From Actinomycetes bacterium (GTDB taxonomy: Bacteria > Actinomycetota > Actinomycetes > JACCUZ01), in contig JBBRHF010000004.1 in the NCBI GenBank assembly GCA_038223055.1, positions 24,123 to 48,122 on the forward strand: DNA of 24,000 nucleotides, written 5' to 3'. The position numbers were made by a program, and so were the translations under genes. How positions within the stretch are numbered: position 1 is the first letter of the stretch; every line of letters begins with the position of its first letter. The notes under the pieces are model-generated. The model was given only the letters and a program-made list of their open reading frames with translations. It did no database searches and was not told the origin of the DNA. Shown here piece after piece: positions 3,162 through 18,374 of the stretch.

Positions 3162-3235
3162 GGGCCTATAGCTCAGCTGGTTAGAGCGCTGCCCTGATAA
3201 GGCAGAGGTCAGTGGTTCAAATCCACTTAGGCCCA
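3162..3235 (+). tRNA. ileT: tRNA-Ile (anticodon GAT)
   Basis: Cloverleaf folded by hand. Acceptor GGGCCTA/TAGGCCC, D stem GCTC/GAGC, anticodon stem CTGCC/GGCAG with loop CTGATAA, T stem AGTGG/CCACT with loop TTCAAAT, discriminator A. CCA is not encoded. Confidence 0.95.
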
Positions 3236-3261
3236 CTCCCGCGGCTGACCGGAGGCACTGC

Positions 3262-3384
3262 ATGACCAAGAGGATGTTCGTGGCCGCCATGGCCGCCGTC
3301 GGCGGGGCGCTGGCCTATCGCAAGGTGCTCGCCGAGCGCACCGAGTCCGATCTTTGGTCCGAGGCGACCGACCCCATCGACTGA
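3262..3384 (+). CDS. 40-aa small membrane-associated protein with DLW motif (DLW-39-like family)
   Basis: Not in the ORF track because it is under 60 aa. GGAGG at 3251-3255, 6 nt before the ATG at 3262. Translation MTKRMFVAAMAAVGGALAYRKVLAERTESDLWSEATDPID. Third-codon positions are almost all G/C. Lies between tRNA-Ile and tRNA-Ala, where I recall this small actinobacterial family being found. Confidence 0.6.
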   Translation: MTKRMFVAAMAAVGGALAYRKVLAERTESDLWSEATDPID

Positions 3385-3453
3385 GGACCCCACCCGTTCC
3401 GGGCTCGTTCAGCGATTCTTCGGTGGCGTAGCCTGGCTGAGGTTCACCTGCTG

Positions 3454-3526
3454 GGGGACGTGGCGCAACTGGTAGCGCACCGCCTTTGCAAGGCGGGGGT
3501 TGAGGGTTCGAGTCCCTTCGTCTCCA
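3454..3526 (+). tRNA. alaT: tRNA-Ala (anticodon TGC)
   Basis: Acceptor GGGGACG/CGTCTCC including the G3:U70 Ala identity pair. D stem GCGC/GCGC. Anticodon stem CCGCC/GGCGG with loop TTTGCAA. T stem GAGGG/CCCTT with loop TTCGAGT. Discriminator A. Confidence 0.95.
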
Positions 3527-3571
3527 CCCAGGGCGACGGCCCGCAGGCCGCTCGGTGTGCTGGCCGGGAGT

Positions 3572-4231
3572 TCAGCCCGACCGACTCGGCAGCCTCGCGG
3601 TGAGAACGTCGGCGCCGCCGAGGGCGGTGACTCCCATCGAGCCGCTGTCCGAGCGGGACAGGGCGGCGGCGAGCACCAACTTCGCGGTTCCATGAACGTC
3701 GGGCCGGAAACTGCCGGCCGGAACCCGCTTGCCGTCCCGGCGGGCCAGCCAGGCTCCGTAGGTGACGCCCGGGTTCAGCCCGCGTACGTCGAGGGTCACG
3801 GCCGTCCCCCAGCCGCGCTGGTCGAGCACCACCCGGGCAGAGGCGCCAGTCGGACTCGCCAGGCGAACGGTCTCACCGTCGGGCCGCTGCCGGCTCAGCC
3901 CGATCACGAAGCCGGCCCCGGTGAACGCTACGGCGATGACCACGGCTGCGACGGCGAGCAGGGCCCGCCGGTTTCCGGTGGACCAGCGTCGCTGCTGGGC
4001 GATCGCGCCGAGCACGCGGTCCAGTGACGGCGCCGGCAGGCTCGGCGGGGGACCCTCGACGGGCACCGCAACGGCCATCGCCGTCACGACCGGACGCAGC
4101 CGAGCCACCTCATCGGCGCAGCCGGGGCACTGAGCGAGGCCGTGTTCGACCCGGGCCGCTTCCTCGGTCGGCAGGTGCCCCAGCAGATAGGGCCCGAGGT
4201 CCTGCGGGCCCAGCCCGCACTCGTGCGTCAT
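3572..4231 (-). CDS. Membrane anti-sigma factor: zf-HC2-like N-terminus, one TM, RskA-like extracytoplasmic domain
   Basis: Internal ATG at 4231 overlaps the sigma-gene stop (ATGA). MTHECGLGPQDLGPYLLGHL...VEHGLAQCPGCADEV gives a His/Cys cluster with H-x4-C-x2-C spacing. TM is ALLAVAAVVIAVAFTGAGFVIGL. The C-terminal segment GVTYGAWLARRDGKRVPAGSF resembles the anti-sigma-K (RskA) domain. The 341-aa ORF in the track is an upstream over-extension into the sigma gene. Confidence 0.75.
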   Translation of the reverse strand: MTHECGLGPQDLGPYLLGHLPTEEAARVEHGLAQCPGCADEVARLRPVVTAMAVAVPVEGPPPSLPAPSLDRVLGAIAQQRRWSTGNRRALLAVAAVVIAVAFTGAGFVIGLSRQRPDGETVRLASPTGASARVVLDQRGWGTAVTLDVRGLNPGVTYGAWLARRDGKRVPAGSFRPDVHGTAKLVLAAALSRSDSGSMGVTALGGADVLTARLPSRSG

Positions 4232-4770
4232 CCGTCCCACCCCATTTCCTCCAGGGCGAGGCGCAGGGCACGCAGGCCGTAGAACGCGCGGCTTCGGGCG
4301 GTGCCCTCGGGGATCCCGAGATCGGCGGCGACATCGGCGTAGGGCCGACCCCGGTAGTAGGTCTCGACCAGCACCAGTCGGTGATCCTCGCGGATGCGCC
4401 GCAGGGCCTCCTCCATCAGCCACACGTCCAGCGACCGGTCGAAGGCGTCTACCTCTGGCGTGTCGCTCTCCCGACGGGGGGCGGGCAGGGCCCGGCTCGC
4501 CCTGGCGCGGACCTCGTCGATGATGACGTTTCGCAAGATCGCGAACAGCCACGGCCGGACCGGCCGGGCTCGATCGTAGCGGTCGGCTGCGCGCCACGCA
4601 CGCAGGAACGTCTCCTGGACCGCCTCTTCTGCCGTGCCACCGTCACCCAGCGCATGGTTCGCGTAGCCGAAAAGCTCACCCGAGTGGGCCTCCCAGGCGG
4701 CGCGCAGGCCGGTGTCGCCGGAGAGGTCAGGTCCCCTCACCCGGGTGCGCTCCTCGCGTCGTAGCGCCAT
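4228..4770 (-). CDS. ECF (group 4) RNA polymerase sigma-70 family factor
   Basis: Region 2 (EEAVQETFLRAWRAADRYD...PWLFAILRNVIIDEVR) and region 4 HTH (LVETYYRGRPYADVAADLGIPEGTARSRAFYGLRALR). Overlaps the downstream anti-sigma gene by 4 nt. GAGGGGGA lies just upstream of the ATG at 4770. Confidence 0.88.
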   Translation of the reverse strand: MALRREERTRVRGPDLSGDTGLRAAWEAHSGELFGYANHALGDGGTAEEAVQETFLRAWRAADRYDRARPVRPWLFAILRNVIIDEVRARASRALPAPRRESDTPEVDAFDRSLDVWLMEEALRRIREDHRLVLVETYYRGRPYADVAADLGIPEGTARSRAFYGLRALRLALEEMGWDG

Positions 4771-4891
4771 CTATCCCCCTCTGCAATCCCCCTCTGCCGC
4801 TCATGACGGTGCCTGAGGAAGCCTCGGTTGTCCAGGCGAGACGCGTGCCGGATGTTCCGCCGGAGCCAGCCGCGAGATTTCCCCGGGTCTG

Positions 4892-4919
4892 GTGAACGGT
4901 CACCCGACGTCGCCCGTAT
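4892..4919 (+). promoter_or_regulatory. Candidate ECF-type promoter (GTGAAC-N17-CGTAT) for the secreted-protein gene
   Basis: GTGAAC at 4892-4897 and CGTAT at 4915-4919 with a 17-nt spacer. This resembles the generic ECF GGAAC-N16-17-CGT architecture. It lies about 90 nt upstream of the GTG at 5012, in the divergent region shared with the sigma gene. Motif match only. Confidence 0.3.
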
Positions 4920-5011
4920 CCCTGCCGACAAGCAGCGCAGATCTGGCCCGCCGGGCTCTACCTCAGCACGCCTCAACCCCCCGGCATACCTCGACCACGA
5001 AGGAGCAAATA

Positions 5012-5536
5012 GTGCGAAGCAGTCGAAAGAACCTCGGGCTCGTCGCAGCGGGGGTCATGGCCCTCGCGACGTTCTCCGCCTCGCCGGCCCTGGCCGACGG
5101 CGGTCACGAGCACAACAACCTTCTCAAGGCTGACCTCGTCGGGAGCAACCCCGCCCCGGCCAGCCCCACCATCGGCGGCATCGCGCCTGGCGGGGCACCG
5201 TGGGTCAACGCCGAGAGCACGGCCCGGGTCCGTGCGGACGGACAGATCACGGTACGCATCCGCGGCCTGGTCATCCCCACCGCGCCGTTCAACGCCACCA
5301 ACCCGGTCGCCAGCGCCGTCGCCACTCTGGTTTGTGGCAACGCCAAGCCGGCAGCGTCAGCATCCACGGCACCGTTCGCGCTCGACACGGCCGGCAACGG
5401 CCGCACCAAGGACATGATCACGGTCCCCATGCCGTGCATGGACCCGGTCGTTCTGATCCAGCCGGTCAGGAACGGTGCGATCGCGCCGGCCTACATCGCG
5501 GCCACGATGATGGACAGCGATCAAGACGACGACTGA
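5012..5536 (+). CDS. Secreted hypothetical protein (Sec signal peptide, two Cys, acidic C-terminus)
   Basis: GTG at 5012 lies 7 nt after AAGGAG (5000-5005). VRSSRKNLGLVAAGVMALATFSASPALA/DGGHEH is a typical signal peptide. I do not recognise the family. The upstream part of the 214-aa track ORF lacks coding character. Confidence 0.7.
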   Translation: MRSSRKNLGLVAAGVMALATFSASPALADGGHEHNNLLKADLVGSNPAPASPTIGGIAPGGAPWVNAESTARVRADGQITVRIRGLVIPTAPFNATNPVASAVATLVCGNAKPAASASTAPFALDTAGNGRTKDMITVPMPCMDPVVLIQPVRNGAIAPAYIAATMMDSDQDDD

Positions 5537-5587
5537 TCAAGACGACGACTGAGGTCGTCCCCACAGATCGCTGGCCCTGCTAGGAAA

Positions 5588-5620
5588 CCCCCCCGCCCCG
5601 GCAGGGCCGGTGCGGGGGGG
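5588..5620. terminator. GC-rich hairpin between convergent genes (probable bidirectional terminator)
   Basis: CCCCCCCGC CCCGGC AGG GCCGG T GCGGGGGGG: a 9-bp outer stem plus a 5-bp inner stem. It sits between the stop of the secreted-protein gene (5536) and the stop of the minus-strand repeat protein (5680). No clear U-tract. Confidence 0.55.
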
Positions 5621-5679
5621 CGGCAGAGGGGGCATGTCCTCCGGTGGAGGACGCGCCCCCTCTGACTGTCCGGTTGCGC

Positions 5680-6546
5680 TCAGGCCGGGTCGATGCCGTC
5701 CTTGATCCGGCGAGCCTGCTCCGGGTCGATCTCCTCCGTAACCGAGCCGGCGGCGGACGCCGACTCGTCCGCAACATCGGCCAGGGCCTCGTCCGGGCTG
5801 GCACCTGCGGCGTCGGCGGCCAGGGAGTCGGCGGCCAGGGAGTCGGCGGCGAGCAGGTCACTTGCCGATGCCGCTGCCACCGGACTCAAGGGCGCCGACG
5901 CGACCGGACTCGGCACCGGAACGCCCGCAGGGTGCAACGAGCCTGTCCCTGTCGAGGCCGTGGGGCGCCCGATCGGCGAGGCCCATGGCTCGGGCTCGTT
6001 GCCGGTGGACCCCACCCATGCCTTCCAGCCGGCCACGGCCGCCCCGATCACGCCGACGAGCAGGAGCAGTTTCCGGCCCCGACGGCGGTTGGGCTTTGGC
6101 GCCTCGATCTCGCCACGAAGTGCGGCAACCGCGGCCGCGCCCCGGGTCTTGGCCTCCCCGCGGACCGGCTCGCTGGCCGCCAGAGCCGCAGCGACGGCAC
6201 CAGCGACCTTGGGGAGCACGTCTCCCTTGACCTTGCTGACGGCGGGCTCGACCTTGGGTGCTGCCCAGTCCAGGGCCGTTCCGACCCTGGGTGCGGCCCA
6301 GTCGCGGGTGGCCTCGACCCTTGGTGCCGCCCACTCAAGGGTGGCGTCGACCTTGGGTGCGGCCCAGTCGCGGGTGGCCCCGACCCTTGGTGCGGCCCAC
6401 TCCAGGGTGGCGTCGACCCTGGGTGCGGCCCAGTCGCGGGCCTCCGACGCCACCGGAGCGACCCTAGCGTTTGCGCGTCGGGTGGTCCGCCGCGCTTCCT
6501 TGCGTAAAGTCGTCATGCGGGACACAAAAGACCTCCGGGTCACCAT
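5680..6546 (-). CDS. Single-pass membrane protein with six 11-residue WAAP(R/K)V repeats (positional analogue of Rv0008c/cwsA)
   Basis: The minus frame has high GC3 and a plausible composition, whereas the two plus-strand ORFs over the same DNA are Arg/Gly/Pro-rich junk. Repeats read DWAAPRVDATLE/WAAPRVGATRD and so on. RRRGRK is followed by the TM LLLLVGVIGAAVAGWKAWV. The tail is Ala/Ser/Pro-rich with DSLAA x3. The start is uncertain: ATG at 6546, or in-frame GTG at 6525 placed 6 nt after GGAGG. Confidence 0.7.
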   Translation of the reverse strand: MVTRRSFVSRMTTLRKEARRTTRRANARVAPVASEARDWAAPRVDATLEWAAPRVGATRDWAAPKVDATLEWAAPRVEATRDWAAPRVGTALDWAAPKVEPAVSKVKGDVLPKVAGAVAAALAASEPVRGEAKTRGAAAVAALRGEIEAPKPNRRRGRKLLLLVGVIGAAVAGWKAWVGSTGNEPEPWASPIGRPTASTGTGSLHPAGVPVPSPVASAPLSPVAAASASDLLAADSLAADSLAADAAGASPDEALADVADESASAAGSVTEEIDPEQARRIKDGIDPA

Positions 6547-6705
6547 TGAGTGGTCGAGCGAGTATTCACCTCTCCTGCCCCAGCCTTGCCTGCAGGAAAC
6601 CGGAGGTCAACTAGCGGGCGGGTGAGACCTCGATCACCACGGCGGCACCCGCGCCGGCGTGCGAGGATGGCGGTTCCCCACCCGACGTACGAAAGGGCCC
6701 CGCTC

Positions 6706-7236
6706 GTGACCGAGGAGCATTATGCCACGCTCAAAACCAACCGTGGCGACATCGTGATCAAGCTGTTCCCCGACCATGCGCCCAAGACGGTGGCGACCTT
6801 CACCGGGCTGGCTGAGGGGTCCCGGGAGTGGGTCGATCCTCGCACCGGAGCCAAGAGCAACGCCAAGCTCTACGACGGCACGATCTTCCATCGGGTGATC
6901 CGCGGGTTCATGATCCAAGGCGGTGACCCGCTCGGCACCGGCACCGGCGGTCCGGGATTCCGCTTCGCCGATGAATTCCACCCCGAGCTGGTGTTCGACC
7001 GGCCCTACCTGCTCGCGATGGCCAATGCCGGACCGGGGACCAACGGGTCCCAGTTCTTCATCACCGTGGGGCCAACCCCCCACCTCAACCGCAAGCACAC
7101 GATCTTCGGCGAGGTCGCCGACGGCCCCAGCCGCGAGGTGGTGGACGCGATCGCCAGCACCGCGACCGGGCCGATGGACCGGCCCACCGACGACGTCGTC
7201 ATCGCCGCCGTTGAGCTCGAGCGCCGAGAGGCCTGA
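6706..7236 (+). CDS. ppiA: Cyclophilin-type peptidyl-prolyl cis-trans isomerase A
   Basis: YATLKTNRGDIVIKLFPDHAPKTV...FHRVIRGFMIQGGDP...YLLAMANAGPGTNGSQFFITV is near-identical in its motifs to mycobacterial and streptomycete PpiA. GTG at 6706 (GAAAGGG 8 nt upstream) gives an N-terminus the same length as the Streptomyces protein. An alternative ATG at 6667 has no usable spacing to an RBS. Confidence 0.93.
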   Translation: MTEEHYATLKTNRGDIVIKLFPDHAPKTVATFTGLAEGSREWVDPRTGAKSNAKLYDGTIFHRVIRGFMIQGGDPLGTGTGGPGFRFADEFHPELVFDRPYLLAMANAGPGTNGSQFFITVGPTPHLNRKHTIFGEVADGPSREVVDAIASTATGPMDRPTDDVVIAAVELERREA

Positions 7237-7245
7237 CCGACTCAC

Positions 7246-8133
7246 GTGAGCGAACACCCCCCGGCCGGCCGGCCGGACGCCGGAACGCAGGACACCGCCA
7301 CGTGCTACCGCCATCCGGAGCGGGAGGCGCACATCCGCTGCGTTCGGTGCAACCGGCGGATCTGCCCCGACTGCATGATCGATGCCTCGGTCGGCTTCCA
7401 GTGCCCCGAGTGCGTGCGGGAGGGCAGCAAGAACGTCCGCCAGGCCCGTACGACGTTCGGCGGGCGGGTCCTCGATGACGCGGGCTATGTCACCAAGATC
7501 CTGATCGGGCTCAACGTCGTGGCGTTCATCGCGCAGCGAGCGGTGGGCGACAGCCTGCAGCACCAGTTCTGGCTGATCGGCGGCCCTGCCCTGGACCCGC
7601 TGCTGGGCCAGCCCGTGGGCGTGGCCGACGGTGAGTACTACCGGCTGCTCACCGCCGCGTTCTTGCATGGCAGCGTCCTGCACCTGGGCCTGAACATGTA
7701 CGCGTTGTATCTGTTCGGCCCGCTGATCGAGCGCGCCTTCGGCCGGCTGCGCTTCACGGCGATCTACCTGGTGTCGGCCCTCGGGGGCACCGCGGCGTCC
7801 TACGCCTTCAACAGCCCGTTCGGGCCTTCACTCGGCGCCTCGGGCGCGGTCTTCGGACTGATGGGCGCGCTGCTGGTGGTCGGGCGGCGCCTCGGCACCG
7901 ACCCCCGCGCGGTGCTCGCCCTGCTCGCCATCAACTTCGCGTTCGGAGTCTTCGCTCAGGGCAGCATCGATTGGCGCGCCCACGTCGGCGGCCTCGTGGC
8001 CGGCGCCGTGGTCGCGCTGCTGCTGTCCTACGCGCCGAAGGCCGGGCGCAACGCCGTACAGGCCCTCGGGGTCATCGCTGTGCTCGGGGCCATCGCCGCG
8101 CTGGTGGTCTGGCGCACGATCAGCCTCGGCTGA
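7246..8133 (+). CDS. Rhomboid-family intramembrane serine protease with N-terminal Cys-rich zinc ribbon
   Basis: CYRH...CVRCNRRICPDC...FQCPEC zinc-ribbon-like N-terminus. FLHGSVLHLGLNMYALYLFG (H-x4-H-x3-N), catalytic GASGAVFGLMGA and HVGGLVAG motifs. Multiple TMs. Confidence 0.9.
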   Translation: MSEHPPAGRPDAGTQDTATCYRHPEREAHIRCVRCNRRICPDCMIDASVGFQCPECVREGSKNVRQARTTFGGRVLDDAGYVTKILIGLNVVAFIAQRAVGDSLQHQFWLIGGPALDPLLGQPVGVADGEYYRLLTAAFLHGSVLHLGLNMYALYLFGPLIERAFGRLRFTAIYLVSALGGTAASYAFNSPFGPSLGASGAVFGLMGALLVVGRRLGTDPRAVLALLAINFAFGVFAQGSIDWRAHVGGLVAGAVVALLLSYAPKAGRNAVQALGVIAVLGAIAALVVWRTISLG

Positions 8134-8512: not shown

Positions 8513-8592
8513 GGAGCGACTCCTTTGTGGCGGTCTCGTCGGCTAGCGTAGACCGCATCACCAGCGCAGTCGGACCGATTCGCTCGCCTGCC

Positions 8593-8636
8593 CGACTCCG
8601 TGCCCAAGCAACCCCGACTCCGTGCCCAAGCAACCC
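8593..8636. repeat. Perfect 22-bp tandem direct repeat (2 copies) in the crgA / DUF881 divergent intergenic region
   Basis: CGACTCCGTGCCCAAGCAACCC occurs at 8593-8614 and again at 8615-8636, ending 16 nt before the DUF881 start codon and overlapping its RBS region. Confidence 0.9.
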
Positions 8637-8652
8637 CGTGGAGGTCAGCGCC

Positions 8653-9387
8653 ATGCCGGCCGCACCCGCGCTGTGGCGCCTCGTGGTTCCGATGGTCTTC
8701 GTGCTGGCCGGTGTGCTCTTCGCGGCGAGTGCCGGCGCGGCCAGGGGTGGGGACCTGCGTGGCGGCGCCAGGAGCGACCTGCCGAGCCTGATCCGGGCCG
8801 AGCAACGTCGCGCCGACGGGGACACCCGCCGGGTCGAGGCGCTGCGCGCCGAGGTCGATGCCGGGACCCGGGTCGCCGCCCGGGCCGACGGCCGGGTCGC
8901 GGCGCAAGTCCAGCGCACCGCCGGTCTGCGTTTCGCTGCCGGCATGGGTGCCCTGCGCGGACCCGGGCTCTCCGTCACCCTGAACGACGCTCCCCGTGCG
9001 GCCGACCGGCTGCTGCCCAAGGGGACCACACCTGATGACCTGGTCGTCCACCAGCAGGACGTGCAGGCCGTGGTCAACGCGCTGTGGGCCGGCGGTGCCG
9101 AGGCGATGCAGATCATGGACCAGCGGGTGATCTCGACCTCGGCCGTGCGGTGCGTCGGGAACACCCTGATCCTGCAGGGCCGCGTCTACTCCCCGCCCTA
9201 CGTCGTCGCGGCGATCGGTGACCCCGATCGGCTCGGTGCCGCGCTGAACCGGTCGGAGAACGTGCAGCTGTTCCGCTACTACGCCGACCACGACGGTCTG
9301 ATCTACCGCGTGGCCGACCACGCCGACCTGCGGGTCGCGGGTTACCAGGGGTCGCTTCGCCTGCTGCACGCCCTGGCGGGCGCGTGA
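8653..9387 (+). CDS. DUF881 domain membrane protein (Rv0012-like, division/cell-wall cluster)
   Basis: ATG at 8653 lies 8 nt after GGAGG. N-terminal TM LWRLVVPMVFVLAGVLFAAS. GPGLSVTLND...DLVVHQQDVQAVVNALWAGGAEAM...GNTLILQGRVYSPPYVVAAIGD matches the DUF881 pattern as I recall it. Confidence 0.8.
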   Translation: MPAAPALWRLVVPMVFVLAGVLFAASAGAARGGDLRGGARSDLPSLIRAEQRRADGDTRRVEALRAEVDAGTRVAARADGRVAAQVQRTAGLRFAAGMGALRGPGLSVTLNDAPRAADRLLPKGTTPDDLVVHQQDVQAVVNALWAGGAEAMQIMDQRVISTSAVRCVGNTLILQGRVYSPPYVVAAIGDPDRLGAALNRSENVQLFRYYADHDGLIYRVADHADLRVAGYQGSLRLLHALAGA

Positions 9388-10082
9388 ACCTCGTCCGGAC
9401 GCTGGTCCGCACTGTCGGTGAGCTGTTCGTCACGGCGGGGGTGGTGCTCCTGCTGTTTTGCGCCTACCAGTTGTTCTGGACCAATGTGCAGGCCGACCAG
9501 GCTCAGCACCGGATCGCCGACCAGCTGACCCGGACCTGGCAGCGGCCCGGGCCTGAGCCAACTCCCGCGCCGGGCAGCACGGCGACTCCGGCCCCGGCGC
9601 GCGTCGACTTCGGCAAGGGCTTCGCCTTCTTGCGCATCCCGCGGCTGGGGAAGTCGTTCACCGTGCCGGTCCTCGAGGGTGTCCGCACGTCCGACCTCGC
9701 CCGCGGTGTCGGCCACTACCCCAAGACTGCCGCTCCCGGGGAGGTCGGCAACTTTTCCGTCGCCGGGCACCGGGCCACCCACGGCGAGCCGTTCCGCAAC
9801 CTGGACCGGATGCGCGCGGGCGACTCGGTCGTGGTGGAGACCCGCACCACGTGGTTCACCTACGTCGTGGACAAGACCCAGATCGTCCTGCCCAGCGACG
9901 TGTGGGTCATCGACCCGGTGCCCGGGCATCCCTCGACCCGGCCCACCCGACGGCTGCTGACCCTCACAACCTGCAACCCGCGCTGGGCATCCACCCATCG
10001 GCTGATCATCTTCACCCACCTGTCGGATGCTCGCCCCAAGACCGAGGGCTCCCCGCCCGCTCTGCTCGCGAAGGGACGGTAG
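9384..10082 (+). CDS. Class E sortase (transpeptidase)
   Basis: GTG at 9384 overlaps the upstream stop (GTGA). N-terminal TM. GNFSVAGHRATHG supplies the catalytic His, LLTLTTCNPRW the TLxTC catalytic Cys, and a downstream HR the Arg. Class E sortases occupy the same neighbourhood in Streptomyces (srtE1/srtE2). Confidence 0.88.
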   Translation: MNLVRTLVRTVGELFVTAGVVLLLFCAYQLFWTNVQADQAQHRIADQLTRTWQRPGPEPTPAPGSTATPAPARVDFGKGFAFLRIPRLGKSFTVPVLEGVRTSDLARGVGHYPKTAAPGEVGNFSVAGHRATHGEPFRNLDRMRAGDSVVVETRTTWFTYVVDKTQIVLPSDVWVIDPVPGHPSTRPTRRLLTLTTCNPRWASTHRLIIFTHLSDARPKTEGSPPALLAKGR

Positions 10083-10241
10083 ATGTACGCCTGGATCTGG
10101 CGCCGCCTGCCCGGCCCCCTGACCGTGCGGCTGCTGGTCGCGACGCTGCTTGCGGCCGGCGTCGTTCTGTTCCTCTTTGTCGTCGCCTTCCCGTGGGCCG
10201 AGGGATCGCTCCCCTTCCTCAAGGTGACGGTCGACCAGTGA
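10083..10241 (+). CDS. 52-aa single-TM small membrane protein
   Basis: Not in the ORF track. The ATG at 10083 directly abuts the sortase TAG (10080-10082), and the TGA at 10239-10241 overlaps the trpG GTG at 10238. Translation MYAWIWRRLPGPLTVRLLVATLLAAGVVLFLFVVAFPWAEGSLPFLKVTVDQ. GC3 is very high (47 of 51 third positions G/C). Confidence 0.55.
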   Translation: MYAWIWRRLPGPLTVRLLVATLLAAGVVLFLFVVAFPWAEGSLPFLKVTVDQ

Positions 10242-10885
10242 GCTCCGCCGCGGCGCCGGGTCCCCGCATCCTGGTCGTCGACAACTACGACAGCTTCGTG
10301 TTCAACCTCGTTCAATACCTCGCCCAGCTCGGCGCCACCTGCGAGGTCCGCCGCAATGACGAGGTGACGGTTTCGGACGCGCTGGGCTACGACGGGGTGC
10401 TGCTCAGCCCCGGCCCGGGCAGGCCGGAGAAGGCTGGAGCCTGCATCGAGCTGGTGCGCGCCTGTGCCGGCGCGATCCCCCTGCTGGGTGTCTGCCTGGG
10501 GCACCAGGCGATCGGCGTCGCCTACGGAGCGACGGTGTCGCGGGCCCCCGAGTTGCTGCACGGCAAGACCAGTCGGATCGTGCACGAGGGGGCGGGCGTG
10601 CTCAACGGTCTGCCGTCGCCGTTCACCGCGACGCGCTACCACTCGCTCGCGGTCGAGTCGGACTCGGTGCCCGACACCCTTGAGGTCACCGCCCGGACTG
10701 ACGGCGGGGTCATCATGGCGATGCGCCATCGCGAGGTCGCCGTCGAGGGCGTCCAGTTCCACCCCGAGTCGGTGCTGACCGAGGGTGGTCATCAGTTGCT
10801 GGCCAACTGGCTGGTCATCTGCGGCGACCCGGGTGCGCCGGCCCGGGCGGTCGGGCTGTCCCCCGTCGTCGGTCGCGACGGCTAA
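10238..10885 (+). CDS. trpG: Anthranilate / aminodeoxychorismate synthase component II (class I glutamine amidotransferase)
   Basis: ILVVDNYDSFVFNLVQYL, LLSPGPGRP, catalytic GVCLGHQAIG, and VEGVQFHPES (His/Glu of the triad). Positional equivalent of Rv0013. Confidence 0.93.
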   Translation: MSSAAAPGPRILVVDNYDSFVFNLVQYLAQLGATCEVRRNDEVTVSDALGYDGVLLSPGPGRPEKAGACIELVRACAGAIPLLGVCLGHQAIGVAYGATVSRAPELLHGKTSRIVHEGAGVLNGLPSPFTATRYHSLAVESDSVPDTLEVTARTDGGVIMAMRHREVAVEGVQFHPESVLTEGGHQLLANWLVICGDPGAPARAVGLSPVVGRDG

Positions 10886-10910
10886 ACGTTTGCCTGACTG
10901 GACCAAACGC

Positions 10911-10950
10911 GACCGGCCCGCAGTGCCGTCGAGGGCGCTGCGGGCCGGTC
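10911..10950. terminator. 13-bp-stem hairpin between convergent trpG and the 4-TM gene
   Basis: GACCGGCCCGCAG tgccgtcgagggcg CTGCGGGCCGGTC, followed by the T-containing tail CCGTGTTCTTGTCGTT. Confidence 0.6.
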
Positions 10951-10964
10951 CCGTGTTCTTGTCG

Positions 10965-11003
10965 TTCGGACTGCTTCAGACTGGTTCAGACTGGTTCAGA
11001 AGG
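10965..11003. repeat. 10-bp tandem repeat TTCAGACTGG (2 perfect and 2 degenerate copies)
   Basis: ttcggactgc ttcagactgg ttcagactgg ttcagaagg, immediately 3' of the minus-strand 4-TM gene stop at 11009-11011. Confidence 0.85.
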
Positions 11004-11008
11004 CAGCC

Positions 11009-11683
11009 TCAGACCGTGGCCGGGTTGGCCGTGGTGGCGGCGTCGGACCTGACCCGCGGGCCGTCGGCAACCTCGCCATCCTGCTGCGTGGTCTCCGCCG
11101 GCGGCGCGATCGACCGGATCAGCCACAGCACCGGCACCGACGCTTCGGCGAAGGCGGCGATGACCTTGGTCGTGAACCACTCCTGCTCGTTGATCGAGGG
11201 GAACGGGCCCACCTGCGGGACGGGCAGGTAGACGCTGGCGAGGACGGCGCCCAGTCCGCTGACCGACAGCACGACCGCAACCAGCCAGACGTGCTTGTTG
11301 CTGGTCAACATGGCGACGGCCAGCAGAGCGCTGATCACCGCAGTCGCGGCGAACAGCTGGCCCTGGGAGAGCACCGATCCGCCGATACCGAGCTGGATCG
11401 CCAGCTTGGCGTGGATGACCGACGACACCGCCAGCGCGAGTGCGGCGAGCAGTCGGGCTGCGAGCAGCGCCCGCGGGTCACCCGCCGGCCGCTGGGATGG
11501 CTGCGACTCGTCGCCCGGCTCGACGTACGACGGGGTGTCGCTCGACGGCTCAGACTGGTCGATCGACGGCTCGGACCGGTGGACCGAAAGCTCACGTTCC
11601 CGGACGGGGACGTTGATGATCTCTGTCTCTTGGTGTTCGGGGTGCTCTGTCACGGCTGTCTCCTTGCCGACGTGGTCGCTCAT
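11009..11683 (-). CDS. 4-TM integral membrane protein with acidic Ser/Pro-rich N-terminal tail; 4-nt overlap with the multi-cupredoxin gene
   Basis: The ATG at 11683-11681 overlaps the upstream TGA (11682-11680) as ATGA. Four predicted TMs: LLAARLLAALALAVSSVIHAKLAI, LFAATAVISALLAVAMLT, VWLVAVVLSVSGLGAVLASVYL and KVIAAFAEASVPVLWLI. I do not recognise the family. The 258-aa track ORF is an over-extension. Confidence 0.7.
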   Translation of the reverse strand: MSDHVGKETAVTEHPEHQETEIINVPVRERELSVHRSEPSIDQSEPSSDTPSYVEPGDESQPSQRPAGDPRALLAARLLAALALAVSSVIHAKLAIQLGIGGSVLSQGQLFAATAVISALLAVAMLTSNKHVWLVAVVLSVSGLGAVLASVYLPVPQVGPFPSINEQEWFTTKVIAAFAEASVPVLWLIRSIAPPAETTQQDGEVADGPRVRSDAATTANPATV

Positions 11684-14600
11684 GACTGATCGGGTGACGG
11701 GGCGATGGTCGCGGGCTCGCCGGAGCGGGCCGCGATCCGAGCCCGCAGTTGCAGCAGGGTGAGCAGGCCGATGATGAGCAGCCAACCTGTGCTGATGCCG
11801 GCCAGGGCGACCGGGGAGATGGCCGCGACGTGGGTCTTGGCCGGGTGGATGTTCAGAGCCGGTCCCACCACCACCATGCCGAACATGCCGGGGTGGGGGG
11901 TGCAGACGTACTCGATGGTGCCTTCCTTGGTCAGCTTCAGGTTGAACCGCTTCCCCGGCGCCAGCTTGGCGTCGAACGAGTGGTCTCTGGCGGTGACCGT
12001 GTGGGGCAGCTTGCCGATGTTGACCCAGCTGATGGTGTCGCCGACCCGTGCTTGCAACGTGGCGGGGGTGAAGGAGTTGTCCTTGACCTCGACCTCGTAG
12101 GTCTTGGCGATACCGCTGCTCTTCGGAGCCGGTCCGGCTGCGGCGAGCGCGGTCTCGGCGGTCCCGCTGCCGCTGGCCTTGGGGACCGCGACACCGGCAA
12201 GCGCCTTGCCGACCGTCAGCGAGCCATCCATGCCGGGGTGATATGTGCAGACGTACTTGACGGTGCCTACCTTGGTGAGCACGTAGTTGAAGCGCTGGCC
12301 GGGTGCTATCGGTGACTTGTCGAACGACTTGTCCGCGGCGGTCACGGTGTGGGCGATCTTGCCGACGTTGACCCAGCTGATCGTGTCCCCGACGTTGGCC
12401 TTCTGGTTGACCGGGGTGAAGGTCATCTCGTTGACCTTGATCTCGTAGGTCTTGGTCTTGCCCTTGCTGGCCGGGGCCGCGACGGCGGCCTTTCCGCCCG
12501 CTGCGGCACCGGCGCCGGCGCCACCACCGCTGCTGTTGGCGGCCGGGGGCGGTACGGCGACTCCGGCGAGAGCCGCGCCGACCACGAGCGTCCCGTTCAT
12601 CCCGGGGTGGTAGGTGCAGACGTAGGCGAAGGTGCCCTTGGCCCGCAGCGCGTAGTTGTAGCGCTGGCCGGGTGCGATCGGTGACTTGTCGAACGACTTG
12701 TCCGCGGCGGTCACCGTGTGCGGCATCTTTCCGACGTTGACCCAGCTGATCGTGTCGCCGACGCGGGCGTTCACGGACTTGGGTGTGAAGGTGTTGTCGC
12801 CGACCTTGATCGTGTAGGTCTTGGTCTTCCCGCTGGCGGCGGGAGCAGGAGCAGCCTTGCCGGCACCTGCGCCGGCGGCGCCGGCCTTCGCTCCAGGCTT
12901 GGCGGCGGGAGCAGGCTTGATGACCGTGCCGGGCAGTGCCGCGGCGACCACGATCGTGCCGGTCATGTAGGAGTGGTAGGTGCAGACATAGGCGATGGTT
13001 CCGGGCTTCTGCAGCACCGTGGATGCCCTGCCGCCGACGGGGAGGGCGACGTCGAAGCCGCCTACCGCGGTGGCGGTGTGGGGCGCCTTGCCGGTGTTGA
13101 CCCAGGTCACCGTGTCGCCGGCGCGCGCCGACAGGTTGGCCGGGCTGAAGCCCGTGTCGGTGACCGTGACGGTGTGGCTGCCCGGCTTACCGGGGGTGGC
13201 TGGCACCGCTGCCGGGACGGGACCCGCAGCGGCTGCGGGCGGTCCGGGGGCGGCCGCTGCGGCCGGCGGCGCGGCACCGGTGGCGTCCTGGACGATGACG
13301 GTGCCGGACATGCCCGGTGAGTGGATGGTGCACTCGTAGGCGTAGGTCCCGGCCGTCGGGAAGGTGTGGCTGAAGGTCTGTCCGGTGGCCAGGGTTGGGC
13401 TTGCGAACACCTCGGCTGTCTTCGAGGTTACGTCGTGCTTGCCGCTGGTGTTGGTCCAGGTGACGGTGCCGCCGACGGCGATGGTGACCGAGGCCGGGGC
13501 GAACGACTGGCCGGACAGGGACACCGCCGCAGTGGCCGGTGCCGGAGCGCCGGGTGCGGGAGCCGCGGGCGCGGGCGCGGGCGCCGGTGCGCCGGGTGCG
13601 GGTGCCGCGGGTGCGGGTGCCGCCGGCGGCGCGCTGCCGCTGGCGTCCTGGACGATGACGGTGCCGGACATGCCCGGTGCGTGGATGGTGCACTCGTAGG
13701 CGTAGGTGCCGGCCTTCGCGAATGTGTGGCTGAAGGTCTGCCCGGCGGCCAGGGTTGGGCTTGCGAACACCTCGGCCGTCTTCGAGGTTACGTCGTGCTT
13801 GCCGCTGGTGTTGGTCCAGGTGACGGTGCCGCCGACGGCGATGGTGACTGAGGCCGGGGCGAACGACTGGCCGGACAGGGACACCGCCGCAGTGGCTGCG
13901 GCCGGTGCTCCGGGTGCGGGGGCAGGTACCGGAGCGGGGGCGGGGGCGGGGGCGGGGGCGGGGGCGGGGGCGGGTGCGGGTGCGGGTGCGGGGGCAGGCG
14001 CCGGGGCCGGGGCGCCGGCGGCCTGCACGATGACCGTGCCGGTCATGCCGCCGTGGAAGGTGCACTCGTAGTTGAAGGTGCCGGCCGTCGGGAACGTGAA
14101 GCTAAAGGTGTTACCGATCCGCAGGGTCGGGCTCCCGAAGACACCGGCCGGTGTCGTCGAGGTCACGTCGTGGGTGCCGCCGCTGTTGGTCCACGTGACG
14201 GTGCCGCCGACGGCGATGGTGACGGACGCCGGGCTGAACGACTGTCCCGAGAGGGTGACCGCCGCCGTCTTCGGCGCGGCTGCGGCCGGGGCGGCTGCGG
14301 CAGCCGGGCCGGGACCCTGGTCAGACGCGGAAGCGCTACTCACGGTGACGGTTCCCTGCAAGGCCGGGTTGCCCATGTTCTCGTGATCGACGTACGAGTA
14401 GGTCCCCACCTCCTTGAAGGTGTAGGACCAGGTCTGACCTGCGTCCAGGCCGCCGGAGTCCAGCTTGGCCGGACCGGAGGTGCTGTGGATGCGGTGCTTG
14501 CCGCCTTGGGCCGCCCAGGTGACAACGGTGCCAGGGGCGACCGTCACGTCCTTCACCGACAGGCTGGTGCCGATCGTGATCGTCTGGGTGCCCGCCGCGA

Positions 14601-14697
14601 CAGCGGTGCCACCGGCGAAGCCGATCACCGCCGCGACGAGTAGCAGGACACTCAGTCCCGCCGTGCGGACGAGCCCGCTTCTATCCTGGTGACGCAT
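11680..14697 (-). CDS. Exported, C-terminally membrane-anchored poly-cupredoxin: eight tandem blue-copper-like domains linked by Ala/Pro-rich spacers
   Basis: GAGGGAG lies 5 nt before the ATG at 14697. Signal peptide is LSVLLLVAAVIGFAGGTAVA/AG. Domains by nt on the minus strand: D1 14565-14341, D2 14265-14023, D3 13893-13645, D4 13533-13285, D5 13176-12943, D6 12822-12577, D7 12456-12208, D8 12108-11863. D2-D8 each carry H...C-x2-H-x2/3-M, e.g. THDVTS...YECTFHGGM and LPHTVT...YVCTPHPGM. D1 has Tyr in place of the Cys. C-terminal TM is ISTGWLLIIGLLTLLQL (about 11814-11743) followed by RARIAARS. Confidence 0.85.
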   Translation of the reverse strand: MRHQDRSGLVRTAGLSVLLLVAAVIGFAGGTAVAAGTQTITIGTSLSVKDVTVAPGTVVTWAAQGGKHRIHSTSGPAKLDSGGLDAGQTWSYTFKEVGTYSYVDHENMGNPALQGTVTVSSASASDQGPGPAAAAAPAAAAPKTAAVTLSGQSFSPASVTIAVGGTVTWTNSGGTHDVTSTTPAGVFGSPTLRIGNTFSFTFPTAGTFNYECTFHGGMTGTVIVQAAGAPAPAPAPAPAPAPAPAPAPAPAPAPAPVPAPAPGAPAAATAAVSLSGQSFAPASVTIAVGGTVTWTNTSGKHDVTSKTAEVFASPTLAAGQTFSHTFAKAGTYAYECTIHAPGMSGTVIVQDASGSAPPAAPAPAAPAPGAPAPAPAPAAPAPGAPAPATAAVSLSGQSFAPASVTIAVGGTVTWTNTSGKHDVTSKTAEVFASPTLATGQTFSHTFPTAGTYAYECTIHSPGMSGTVIVQDATGAAPPAAAAAPGPPAAAAGPVPAAVPATPGKPGSHTVTVTDTGFSPANLSARAGDTVTWVNTGKAPHTATAVGGFDVALPVGGRASTVLQKPGTIAYVCTYHSYMTGTIVVAAALPGTVIKPAPAAKPGAKAGAAGAGAGKAAPAPAASGKTKTYTIKVGDNTFTPKSVNARVGDTISWVNVGKMPHTVTAADKSFDKSPIAPGQRYNYALRAKGTFAYVCTYHPGMNGTLVVGAALAGVAVPPPAANSSGGGAGAGAAAGGKAAVAAPASKGKTKTYEIKVNEMTFTPVNQKANVGDTISWVNVGKIAHTVTAADKSFDKSPIAPGQRFNYVLTKVGTVKYVCTYHPGMDGSLTVGKALAGVAVPKASGSGTAETALAAAGPAPKSSGIAKTYEVEVKDNSFTPATLQARVGDTISWVNIGKLPHTVTARDHSFDAKLAPGKRFNLKLTKEGTIEYVCTPHPGMFGMVVVGPALNIHPAKTHVAAISPVALAGISTGWLLIIGLLTLLQLRARIAARSGEPATIAPSPDQS
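13262..13920. repeat. Tandem ~300-bp duplication with 360-bp period inside the poly-cupredoxin gene (domains D3/D4)
   Basis: 13262-13560 aligns with 13622-13920, with about 19 mismatches counted by eye (roughly 94% identity; about 96% in the core). The encoded domains differ at only about 5 residues. Confidence 0.9.
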
Positions 14698-15063
14698 GGT
14701 CGCTCCCTCTCATTGCCGGCTCGGCGAGCCACCGGAGTGGGGTCGCCGTTTTGTGTCACCTTGGTAGACCTTCTGTGCTCGACCTAGGGGCTAACGGTTC
14801 GCGAGGCAAGGACCTTTGGCCCCCGCGAGCGTGGATGTTAGGTAAAGCTTTTGCCACGGCAACCATCTGAGGCCACTTTCGGCCGCCGCGAAGCTCCATC
14901 CGGAAGCCATCACCAGTCGGGTTGTGGGGAGTCGTGCCCAAGGGGCACCCACCGATCCCGGCACTATCACAAAAAGTGCATAAAGGGAGAGTACGTCGAA
15001 TCCGGACGCCCCCTTACCGCATGCCGCCGGGTGTGCCCCACACGGCGAAGCGGACCCCGATCT

Positions 15064-15148
15064 GTGTCCCTCAGCCTGCCGTGTCCCTCAGCCCGCCGTG
15101 TCCCTCAGCCCGCTGTGTCCCTCAGCCTGCCGTGTCCCTCAGCCTGCC
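15064..15148. repeat. Five head-to-tail copies of a 17-bp unit GTGTCCCTCAGCC(T/C)GC(C/T)
   Basis: Copies at 15064-15080, 15081-15097, 15098-15114, 15115-15131 and 15132-15148, with 0-2 substitutions per copy. Non-coding: the period is not a multiple of 3. Located between the pknB stop and the poly-cupredoxin start. Confidence 0.95.
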
Positions 15149-15253
15149 GTGGTGACTCGACGCCACCCGCCACGCGGCCTCCACGCGGTTGTCCGCAGTT
15201 CGCTGTCGCCCTGCCGGCAACAGTGTCGGCAGCGCTATAGGTGGCGCGGGTGT

Positions 15254-15281
15254 CCCACCCCCACCCCCACCCCCACCCCCC
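15254..15281 (-). repeat. (CCCCA)n tract; on the minus (sense) strand G3-T-G5-T-G5-T-G5-T-G6, a G-quadruplex / i-motif candidate
   Basis: CCCACCCCCACCCCCACCCCCACCCCCC starts 20 nt 3' of the pknB stop. It abuts the palindrome CCGGCGC-TG-GCGCCGG at 15280-15295. Confidence 0.8.
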
Positions 15282-15300
15282 GGCGCTGGCGCCGGACCGG

Positions 15301-17069
<1,769 letters not shown>

Positions 17070-17073
<4 letters not shown>

Positions 17074-18374
17074 TCGTCGCCTTCCTGCTGGGGCGGATGC
17101 TGCTGGTCTTGCTTGTGCCGGTCACCCGGAGGTTGCCCCGGCTGGGGGCGTGACGGGTCGTCTGGTCCGGTCCCTGCTGGTCCGACGGTAACGGTCCCGG
17201 CGGTGTCACCCGACGAGCCGGGAGCAGTGCACGCCCGGACCAGGCTCATCGTCAGGAGGGCCAGGGCGAGCAGCACGACCGTGGTGGGCAGCCACCGGGA
17301 GCGCCGGCGCGCGGGCGGAAGCTCGAATCCCGGATCGGTGTCGGAACCGACCCGGCCGGGCCCGCCGACCCGCTCGTAGGGCACGGCGATGGGCGGCGGC
17401 TCCTGCGGCGAGCGCGCCGAATTCGGAGAGCGGGCCGCGTCCGACATGTGGGCTGCGTCCGACGTGTGGGCTGCGTCCGACATGTGGGCTGCGTCCGACA
17501 TGTGGGCTGCGTCCGAAAAGTGGGCTGCGTCCGGTACGCCCGCATCCGGTGAGATCGCATCGAGCAGCCCGGCCGCCTCGCGGCCCACGTCCCCGGCGGT
17601 CACCGGCCGGAAGGCAGGGTCCTTGGCCAGCATCCGCATCACGAGGTCGCGGGCCGGCGCGGGAACCGTGGGCGGCAGCTCCGGGGGCGGCTCGCGCACC
17701 TGGGCCAACGCGACGGTGACGGGGGTGTCGCCGACGAACGGCAGCCGCCCGCTCAGGCACTCGTAGGCCACGATGCCAAGGGAGTAGATGTCGCTGGCGG
17801 GGGTCACCGGCCGGCCGCTGGCCTGCTCAGGTGAGATGTAGTGAGCGGTTCCCATGATCGCGCCGGTGCGGGTGAGCGGAACCGAGTTGGCGGCTCGGCT
17901 GATGCCGAAGTCGGTGATCTTGAGTACGCCGTCGGGAGTGACGATCATGTTGCCGGGCTTGATGTCGCGGTGGATGACCCCCTCGAGATGGGCCGCCTCC
18001 AGCGCGAACGCGGCCTGCCCGATGAGGTCGATGCTGCGTTCGGCGTCCAGCGGCCCCTCCCGGGTGATGATCGTCGAGAGGGGCTCGCCGGGCACGAGCT
18101 CGAGCACGAGGAATGGCGCCCCGGCCGCCTCGCCGCCGTAGTCGTAGACCGCCGCGATGCCCGGGTGCGACAGCGCGGCGGCATGGCGCGCCTCGGCCCG
18201 AAACCGCTCGAGGAAGGTCGCGTCCTCGGCGTACTCCCGGCGCAGCAGCTTGACCGCCACCGGCCGGGCGAGCACCTGGTCGGTGGCGGCCCAGACCTCG
18301 CCCATGCCGCCGCCGGCGATGCGTTCGGACAGGACATAGCGCTCGCCGAGGACGACGTGGGTGTCCGATGTCAT
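17070..18374 (-). CDS. pknA: Ser/Thr protein kinase PknA
   Basis: The ATG at 18374 overlaps the pbpA stop (ATGA). GGGMGEVW, VAVK, HRDIKPGN, DFGIS and GTAHYISPEQ. Single TM WLPTTVVLLALALLTMSLV. The 482-aa track ORF is an over-extension into pbpA. Confidence 0.93.
17439..17528. repeat. 18-bp in-frame tandem repeat x5 within pknA (encodes SDAAH[M/T/F] hexapeptides)
   Basis: GTCCGACATGTGGGCTGC repeated at 17439, 17457, 17475, 17493 and 17511, with 0-3 substitutions. It translates on the minus strand as DAAHFSDAAHMSDAAHMSDAAHTSDAAHMSDAA in the juxtamembrane linker. Confidence 0.92.

Follow-up and report, generated by a model that had tools for sequence, protein, structure and literature searches.

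The locus described here raises the question of why a gene for a protein with eight cupredoxin domains, followed by a gene for a small membrane protein with four transmembrane (TM) helices, stands between trpG and pknB, next to the conserved division operon of an uncultured actinobacterium. It lies in a 24,000-nucleotide stretch of actinomycete DNA (hereafter, the window), an origin-proximal conserved region of about 70% GC. An earlier note on this DNA had proposed that the two genes are an insertion into an otherwise tight junction, and that they may be controlled together with cell-wall growth signalling. The explanation that we favour, and regard as reasonably probable, is that of a conserved two-gene cassette inserted in a permissive junction, i.e., a copper electron relay that has been split from its quinol-dehydrogenase genes and has no tie to PknB.

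The interval between the trpG stop and the pknB stop measures 4,415 bp (10886-15300). Its left flank is trpG, encoding a glutamine amidotransferase (10238-10885, + strand; Pfam GATase, 3.3e-56; the start codon is approximate), and its right flank is pknB (15301-17073, - strand; Pfam Pkinase, 7.4e-50, and three PASTA domains). Beyond pknB, the - strand carries pknA, pbpA, rodA, pstP, fhaB and fhaA, so that Pfam bears out the flanks and the gene order of the earlier note. The interval consists of a 1,005-residue poly-cupredoxin open reading frame (ORF; 11680-14697, - strand), a 224-residue 4-TM gene (11009-11683, - strand; an identical public gene call is P0001), and a 603-bp spacer, in agreement with the claimed 4.3 kb and leader of about 600 bp. 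The overlap of the two genes is real, but shorter than the claimed extent of about 100 nt. Read directly from the sequence, stop and start share the four nucleotides ATGA at 11680-11683 (- strand), so that the true start codon of the membrane-protein gene is the ATG at 11683 and the TTG at 11785 is to be discarded. Such an overlap implies translational coupling of the two genes.

To place this arrangement among its relatives, we searched the genome loci of the 80 closest PknB relatives, one genome per GTDB species, with the proteins of the window. None of the 80 loci has a cupredoxin or 4-TM match within 10 kb of pknB. That is, the pair does not belong to the conserved fhaA-pknB division operon, and it is not a feature of this junction in most actinobacteria. 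In three uncultured Actinomycetota metagenome-assembled genomes (MAGs), a DUF881-sortase-trpG block converges on pknB, and the stops of trpG and pknB are separated by 5 bp (L006, PknB 66% identical), 135 bp (L007, 59%) and 561 bp (L036, 60%). The trpG of the window is 77% identical to that of L006, the one located 5 bp from pknB. Given the absence of the pair from all 80 loci, and the short gaps in these three closest relatives, the comparison supports a lineage-specific insertion of the pair between trpG and pknB in one uncultured actinobacterial lineage.

The description of the junction as otherwise tight has to be qualified, since it is not so throughout. A convergent trpG is present in 54 loci, with a median gap of 120 bp; 36 have a gap of at most 300 bp, but in 15 of the 54 a gap of 1-5 kb holds unrelated, lineage-specific cargo. 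This cargo includes an HNH/DUF222 nuclease (L008), a 998-residue AAA-TPR-LuxR regulator (L024), an ABC transporter (L041, Amycolatopsis), a RibD_C protein (L063, Nocardia), an acyl-CoA dehydrogenase (L045, Rhodococcus), a BrkB-family protein (L048, Janibacter) and an Mrr nuclease (L016, Streptomyces). L023 likewise has cargo between pknB and trpG. On this comparison, the convergent trpG/pknB junction is a recurrent permissive landing site, or insertion hotspot, and any functional inference from adjacency is thereby weakened.

The interval has none of the traits of a genomic island or mobile element, i.e., a mobility gene, flanking repeats, an adjacent tRNA or a deviant composition. The two ORFs and the non-coding leader leave no room in it for an integrase or transposase, direct repeats flanking it do not exceed chance, and a tRNA scan found no tRNA within it; the nearest are tRNA-Ile and tRNA-Ala at 3162-3528. 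The cupredoxin and 4-TM genes have third-position GC contents of 0.88-0.89, compared with 0.84-0.93 in the neighbouring genes, and codon adaptation values of 0.69-0.71, compared with 0.64-0.76. The earlier statements that the composition looks native, and that integrase, transposase and flanking direct repeats are missing, are therefore confirmed for the interval. Viral contigs contain no relatives of the pair, and the 69 bp on the 3' side of the most closely related pair (L095) do not align with the window. As an event, the insertion is of an ordinary kind, i.e., a gene acquisition by one lineage at a site that tolerates cargo.

The pair and its usual operon

The earlier note had raised the question of whether the two genes are inherited together elsewhere. 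Among loci with a close 4-TM homologue and usable upstream sequence, 11 independent ones other than the window have the cupredoxin gene immediately before the 4-TM gene (L001, L002, L004, L087, L088, L091, L092, L095, L096, L099 and L101), with one exception, L086, discussed below. The same 4-nt overlap is found in L001, L002, L004, L095, L096 and L099, as well as in an Arthrobacter plasmid (L110). The two genes have diverged congruently: a Mantel test over 11 loci, comparing pairwise divergence of the 4-TM core with that of the last 135 residues of the copper protein, yielded r = 0.79, a value reached by 1 of 10,000 permutations. L095 is the nearest relative of the window for both genes, at 81% and 82%. 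The two modules also occur fused in single proteins: P0146 (413 residues) has a signal peptide, a cupredoxin domain, a Pro/Ala linker, a TM helix and the 4-TM domain, and P0112 (327 residues) has the 4-TM domain, a TM helix and a cupredoxin domain. A more distant 4-TM member, in L094, is preceded by a single-domain cupredoxin lipoprotein. Judged from these comparisons, the pair is inherited as a unit. In L092 (2689-3223), the 4-TM gene matches in two reading frames, i.e., there is a frameshift or a sequencing error.

The plasmid copy is found in Arthrobacter sp. U41, on the conjugative plasmid unnamed2 (NZ_CP015734.1, 47844-48721; L110 5522-6399). The first gene of this pair encodes WP_083266752.1, annotated 'cupredoxin domain-containing protein', with a lipobox and a CTFHPQM loop; the second encodes WP_197515887.1, annotated 'hypothetical protein', which matches the 4-TM family profile with an hhalign probability of 99.4% (E 2.9e-21). 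Recombinase, IS3, CHRD, sortase and second cupredoxin genes are its neighbours. This copy is the only evidence for mobility of the wider family.

The 1,005-residue protein of the window starts with a Sec-type signal peptide and ends in a TM anchor, with eight cupredoxin domains between the two. It has the domain signature of type-1 copper cupredoxins, being recognized by the Pfam families Cupredoxin_1 (1.4e-61, 205 bits, cut-off 27, seven stretches) and Copper-bind (2.4e-57, 192 bits, cut-off 21, six stretches), and among NCBIfam models it fits that of amicyanin best (233 bits over eight stretches together, against a cut-off of 110); the PDB matches are to amicyanin, pseudoazurin and plastocyanin. 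An exact-sequence look-up returned no identical record. By motif scan and domain alignment, seven of the eight domains (residues 145-947; 11857-14265, - strand) contain a full type-1 ligand set, i.e., an invariant upstream His and a Cys-x2-His-x2/3-Met loop. The loops begin at residues 212, 336, 456, 572, 694, 817 and 932. That of domain 8 is CTPHPGM, and the amicyanin loop is CTPHPFM. Copper binding and redox activity of the seven domains are predicted from these ligand sets.

The remaining cupredoxin-like domain is N-terminal and membrane-distal (residues 36-112; 14362-14592, - strand). In all 13 aligned homologues this domain lacks the Cys ligand; what it conserves is one His and a Y-x-D motif. 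A direct repeat of 300 nt with 86% identity marks domains 3 and 4 as a recent duplication. The linkers between domains are 32-46 residues long and rich in Pro, Ala and Gly. At the C-terminus, 16 homologues share the membrane anchor SPVAxAGxxTGWLLIIGLLTxxQLRxR (11737-11817, - strand). A sortase motif of the LPXTG or LAXTG type is absent from the C-terminus, which ends ...ISPVALAGISTGWLLIIGLLTLLQLRARIAARS, and the homologues likewise have no L[PA]xTG. The C-terminus thus tethers the chain to the membrane, and the copper-less domain is the one farthest from it. The number of copper sites in close homologues, which are 50-58% identical and without exception of metagenome or MAG origin, is 4, 5, 6 or 7, while the domain spacing stays at about 110-125 residues; the chain of the window is the longest among the complete ones. 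In our model, therefore, the protein is a chain of seven amicyanin-like type-1 copper centres, strung like beads on Pro/Ala-rich linkers and closed by a copper-less cap.

The 4-TM partner has helices at residues 70-97, 107-127, 132-152 and 166-192, preceded by an acidic, Ser/Thr/Pro-rich cytoplasmic tail (residues 1-65). Across its family (alignment A1), H91, W133, Y152, G159, W169, R190 and P194 are invariant, as is a loop of the form GP[FL]P.I.EP.W. The family has no Pfam or NCBIfam model, and a Pfam scan of 38 members at E<=10 gave nothing consistent. It can be recognized by traits that are all present in the window: four TM helices, an invariant His in TM1, the outer-loop motif Y...GP[FL]P.[IM].EP.W, and a position right behind a cupredoxin gene, or fusion with one. 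Among 1.8 billion cluster representatives, a profile search found 470 members at E<=1e-3, and the family is thus a sizeable, uncurated one. The fusions P0112 and P0146 fix the topology as N-in/C-in, which places His91, Tyr152, Glu166 and Trp169 at the outer face. A relationship to DoxX was considered and dropped, as it was indicated by a single member at E=2.1. The tail (11480-11683) includes a KE[TP]x[VM]T motif that is semi-conserved. The tail of the window also has a 21-bp repeat of 2.8 copies (11537-11594) encoding SEPSxDQ.

The usual context of the pair is not the trpG/pknB junction; neither pknB nor trpG is near it in any of the other pair-carrying loci. Wherever at least 3 kb of upstream sequence is available (L001, L004, L088, L092, L099 and L101/L102), the same two genes precede the poly-domain pair. 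One encodes a Fer4_11 iron-sulfur (Fe-S) protein of the 4Fe-4S type, of about 285 residues and with a twin-arginine leader, which matches PsrB, ArrB and the Fe-S half of ActB. The other encodes an NrfD-family protein of about 660 residues, which in the PDB matches nothing but ActC, in four structures solved for alternative complex III (ACIII), at E values between 2.6e-42 and 2.5e-35. The pair is thus the distal half of a four-gene operon in other uncultured actinobacteria, while the downstream neighbours are different in every locus. The ActC-like proteins (e.g., L001 5941-7932 and L004 2138-4108) are about 200 residues longer than the solved ActC chains; the extra part, at the C-terminus, has the look of a beta-rich domain outside the cytoplasm, after which come a last TM helix and a basic tail. 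In L099, the operon is preceded (3572-6963) by a Tat-signal protein with a weak Cu-oxidase_3 match (2.6e-07), a 373-residue protein without assignment and a LuxR-type two-component system. The copper chain might have this multicopper-oxidase-like protein as its terminal partner.

The two halves of the operon can be separated. More than 1,000 proteins belong to the ActC-like family at 1e-30, which makes it much larger than that of the cupredoxin/4-TM pair, and in a Dermatophilaceae MAG (GCA_035655615.1, L106 6437-9968; also L107-L109) the Fe-S and ActC-like genes occur without the cupredoxin pair downstream, which makes the arrangement in the window plausible. These Dermatophilaceae genes are preceded by a gene for a conserved 203-residue lipoprotein ending ...GTYTWSCMTPCGGGADGMTGSM, which resembles a cupredoxin or CuA-type strand and loop. 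That it is a cupredoxin could not be shown: the hhalign probability was 11%, and Pfam found nothing.

A proposed electron relay and alternative explanations

On the reading that we prefer, i.e., a copper electron relay separated from its quinol-dehydrogenase genes, the insertion, the inheritance of the two genes as a pair, the copper ligand sets and the operon context elsewhere are shown by the sequences, and we infer which way and to what end electrons flow, and what the 4-TM protein does. NrfD-like subunits are quinone-interacting, cofactor-less anchors of such complexes (PMC8076601), and ACIII oxidises menaquinol and reduces the blue-copper protein auracyanin (PMC10873879). In the relay, the ActC-like subunit would oxidise menaquinol and hand the electrons, via the Fe-S subunit, to the membrane-proximal copper domain, from which they would move outward along the tethered chain by domain-domain encounters. 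The end acceptor would be of high potential, and might be an oxidase, some copper enzyme or an oxidant outside the cell; the opposite flow, from an extracellular donor, would also be possible. The 4-TM bundle, together with the conserved anchor helix, may form a membrane dock or act as an assembly partner of the chain. In the host organism, the quinol-dehydrogenase genes would need to sit elsewhere in the genome. The variable number of domains and the wall-length linkers suggest a reach across the envelope, for which the chain might act as a 'wire' or as a set of tethered shuttles.

Several results weigh against this explanation. Searches of the 24-kb window with tblastn (1e-4) detected no ActC-like or Fe-S gene, nor is there a relic of one in the leader, and any electron source for the chain in the host organism is thus hypothetical. 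The flexible linkers of 32-46 residues do not keep the copper centres at tunnelling distance, so that electron transfer would need collisions between domains. The 4-TM protein has no recognisable cofactor motif, and its AlphaFold2 model, with four helices, is mediocre (pLDDT 63); a Foldseek search of the PDB with this model returned generic helical bundles only (E>4), and no fold could be assigned. The association of the two genes is also imperfect. In L086, the close 4-TM homologue is extended at its N-terminus in another way, and its ORF is preceded by 63 bp of contig, too little for a cupredoxin gene; the distant member in L103 (about 1e-27) has no cupredoxin neighbour. Moreover, the nearest sequenced relatives are only 59-66% identical in PknB, and the insertion therefore cannot be dated. 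At greater distance the association becomes weaker, since the poly-cupredoxin protein P0063 (36% identical) has no 4-TM neighbour.

A related proposal is that the pair itself is a haem-free, copper-only conduit for long-range electron transfer through the actinobacterial envelope, in which the 4-TM protein gives a quinol-docking or partner-docking site in the outer leaflet, formed by His91, Tyr152, Glu166 and Trp169. We consider this rather unlikely. In such a conduit, the pair could act without adjacent ActBC-like genes, which is how it occurs in the window, on the Arthrobacter plasmid and in the fusions. If this were true, tethered type-1 copper domains would be the building blocks of a new class of modules for respiration or extracellular electron transfer.

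A role in copper homeostasis, with the chain buffering or sequestering copper on the periplasmic side and the 4-TM protein acting as a component of copper handling or export, is in our view unlikely. The 1,005-residue protein does resemble the copper-resistance cuproprotein CopI weakly (NCBIfam NF051440, 67 bits, below the cut-off of 280), the Arthrobacter pair is plasmid-borne, and the invariant His, Tyr, Glu and Trp of the 4-TM protein are on its outer face, if the topology is taken from the fusions. However, the copper domains have complete type-1 electron-transfer ligand sets and not the Met/His-rich motifs of sequestration, the conserved neighbours are of the quinol-dehydrogenase type and not of the CopA, CsoR or CopZ type, and one copper per domain of about 120 residues would be a poor design for storage.

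We regard as quite unlikely the possibility that read-through has made the pair a part of the pknB operon, under common control with cell-wall growth signalling, e.g., as a substrate or effector of PknB. The pair is co-oriented with pknB, whose 3' end, in the mRNA sense, forms a GC-rich hairpin followed by a (GGGGGT)4GGG run (15254-15309, - strand). The fold of this 3' end has an energy of -80.8 kcal/mol over 141 nt (z=-1.97), and a U-tract is absent. In the leader, a scan that does not span the diversity of actinobacterial promoters detected no sigma-70-type promoter. Because the hairpin has no U-tract and no canonical promoter was detected, read-through from pknB into the pair may occur. The Ser/Thr-rich tail of the 4-TM protein, with its KE[TP]x[VM]T motif, might in principle be a target of a Ser/Thr kinase, and one may speculate that it is a phosphorylation or FHA-binding site.

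The genomic evidence argues otherwise. The pair is found at none of the 80 pknB loci, and every other locus with the pair lacks pknB, the genes upstream, where available, being those for the Fe-S and ActC-like proteins. The Thr motif is kept regardless of genomic position, i.e., also in homologues far from pknB, so that adjacency is not needed for it. The same junction contains unrelated cargo in other genera. The 603-bp spacer itself, with a dip in GC to 58% at 14898-14997 and a strong ribosome-binding site, GAGGGAG, at about 14703-14709 before the cupredoxin ATG, looks like an independent upstream region. The functional tie to cell-wall growth signalling that the earlier note had put forward thus finds no support, and the adjacency to pknB is most likely an accident of the landing site, not a sign of shared function.

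A surface protein without redox function, in which the cupredoxin repeats would be structural or adhesive and the 4-TM protein a helper in secretion or anchoring, is very improbable. Pro/Ala-rich linkers and a variable number of repeats are typical of surface proteins, and the distal domain has no copper site; in all the other 4-7 domains, however, the four ligands are kept across homologues that are only 50-58% identical, and the genes are linked to those for Fe-S and ActC-like proteins. An ancestral arrangement, in which the pair was at the junction originally and was lost in other lineages, is likewise very improbable: the native-looking composition and codon usage, and the lack of mobility genes or target-site duplications, would fit it, but it requires losses in all 80 sampled Actinomycetes lineages, the three nearest included, the usual context of the pair is a different operon, and a native look is expected even after transfer, as the contigs that carry the pair have 65-72% GC.

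Leader, repeats and neighbouring genes

The leader, from the pknB stop to the cupredoxin ATG (14698-15300, - strand), has no codon-position bias in GC and is non-coding. The idea that it is a pseudogene relic of the missing upstream genes was rejected, as tblastn with ActC, Fe-S and other proteins (E<=5) gave chance-level matches only; blastn of the leader against all fetched loci likewise gave matches at chance level. An Rfam scan of 10500-15800 at E<=1 found no match, i.e., no known riboswitch or leader RNA. The fold of the proximal 268 nt (z=+0.11) is no better than that of shuffled sequence, and lends no support to a structured leader RNA in this part.

The leader had been called repeat-rich, which holds insofar as it contains one tandem array and a (GGGGGT)n run. 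The array, found with Tandem Repeats Finder (TRF; score 155), consists of 5.2 copies of a 17-bp unit (15064-15151, - strand) that reads GGCAGGCTGAGGGACAC on the transcribed strand; five copies of the unit are present, all within 15064-15151, compared with 0.03 expected by chance. The (GGGGGT)n run (15254-15280; TRF, 6 bp, 4.5 copies at 100%) begins about 20 nt past the pknB stop, directly after the GC hairpin. The (GGGGGT)4GGG sequence is a strong candidate for a G-quadruplex at the 3' end of the pknB operon. Such repeats are not specific to the insertion, since short tandem arrays of a similar kind occur elsewhere in the window (17432-17533, 6247-6440 and 8591-8638), and are thus a trait of the genome.

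The first of these arrays, an 18-bp repeat of 5.7 copies, is located in pknA and encodes a repeated DAAHMS peptide in the stretch that links the kinase domain to the TM segment. The second is a 33/66-bp array of 5.9/2.9 copies, and the third a perfect 22-bp array of 2.2 copies at the annotated 5' end of the DUF881 ORF. An acidic, GAC-rich array is also found at the 3' end of gyrA (2415-2524). The genome in general is rich in repeats resembling variable-number tandem repeats.

On the trpG side of the interval, the gap between trpG and the 4-TM gene contains a GC-rich inverted repeat (10907-10954), which is probably a bidirectional terminator; the terminator scan gave a 17-pair stem with 14 GC pairs, and the inverted-repeat entry I5 has arms of 24 nt with 88% complementarity. 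Just past the 4-TM stop is a 10-bp tandem repeat of 3.7 copies (10964-11000; TRF score 60), the unit of which is of weak significance, being equalled window-wide in 1 of 100 shuffles. Farther to the left are gyrA (16-2637), ppiA (6550-7236), a rhomboid gene (7246-8133), the DUF881 gene (8527-9387, + strand) and a sortase gene (9384-10082, + strand). The latter belongs to the conserved DUF881-sortase-trpG block and is 63% identical in L006.

Related systems and significance

The closest known counterpart is ACIII together with auracyanin, as in Chloroflexus and Roseiflexus (6f0k, 6lod, 8k9e and 6btm). In the related loci too, an ActC-like NrfD-family protein (E 1e-42 to ActC chains) and a Tat-exported Fe-S subunit are encoded beside a membrane-anchored blue-copper protein, and the cassette can be described as a variant of a quinol dehydrogenase that feeds a blue-copper carrier. 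The differences are nevertheless substantial. The related loci encode only two ACIII-like subunits, and their called genes include no haem-containing ActA or ActE, no ActD or ActF, and no molybdopterin-like half of ActB; nor is there a cytochrome gene or a second NrfD gene among the called, Pfam-marked genes of the window or of the related operons. The ActC-like protein, at about 660 residues, has the additional extracytoplasmic C-terminal domain and TM helix, and the ActBC-like genes are absent from the window itself. Compared with auracyanin, there are 4-7 tandem copper centres instead of one, and an obligatory 4-TM partner. Our literature search found no description of poly-cupredoxin chains, of the 4-TM partner, or of a linkage to ActBC-like genes in actinobacteria, and a review of the NrfD family mentions no copper partners (PMC8076601).

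The domains have the cupredoxin signatures and the His...Cys-x2-His-x2-Met loop of amicyanin, plastocyanin and halocyanin. In contrast to these single-domain proteins, that of the window has eight domains, long Pro/Ala linkers, a TM anchor, a copper-less cap and a gene for a 4-TM partner. The Arthrobacter sp. U41 pair is alike in its 4-nt overlap, its 4-TM family (hhalign, 99.4%) and its Cys-x2-His-x2-Met loop, and unlike in having one copper domain, a lipoprotein anchor, a plasmid location and no ActBC-like genes nearby.

Extracellular electron transfer in Gram-positive bacteria by multihaem or flavin proteins is exemplified by OcwA of Thermincola and by PplA and EetAB of Listeria, where a membrane quinol dehydrogenase feeds a redox chain that spans the wall; such systems also include small, uncharacterised membrane proteins alongside the exported redox protein. 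The relay proposed here is alike in concept. The pair differs from these systems in using copper, not haem or flavin, and has no sequence relationship to them. Type-1 copper centres are expected to have potentials of about +0.2 to +0.4 V, which would suit high-potential acceptors or donors.

The position of the pair next to pknB should therefore not be read as a new branch of PknB signalling. What the locus reveals is an uncharacterised 4-TM family, with hundreds of cluster representatives, that is tied to blue-copper proteins by gene order, translational coupling and fusions. It also leads to a four-gene operon in uncultured soil actinobacteria, in which a minimal ACIII-like quinol module is combined with a tethered chain of 4-7 copper centres. 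The Arthrobacter sp. U41 plasmid copy offers an entry point to this family in a cultured, genetically tractable organism. Should the chain prove to conduct electrons through the wall, it would stand beside the multihaem conduits as their copper-based equivalent, and would widen the set of marker genes from which extracellular or high-potential respiration is predicted in metagenomes.

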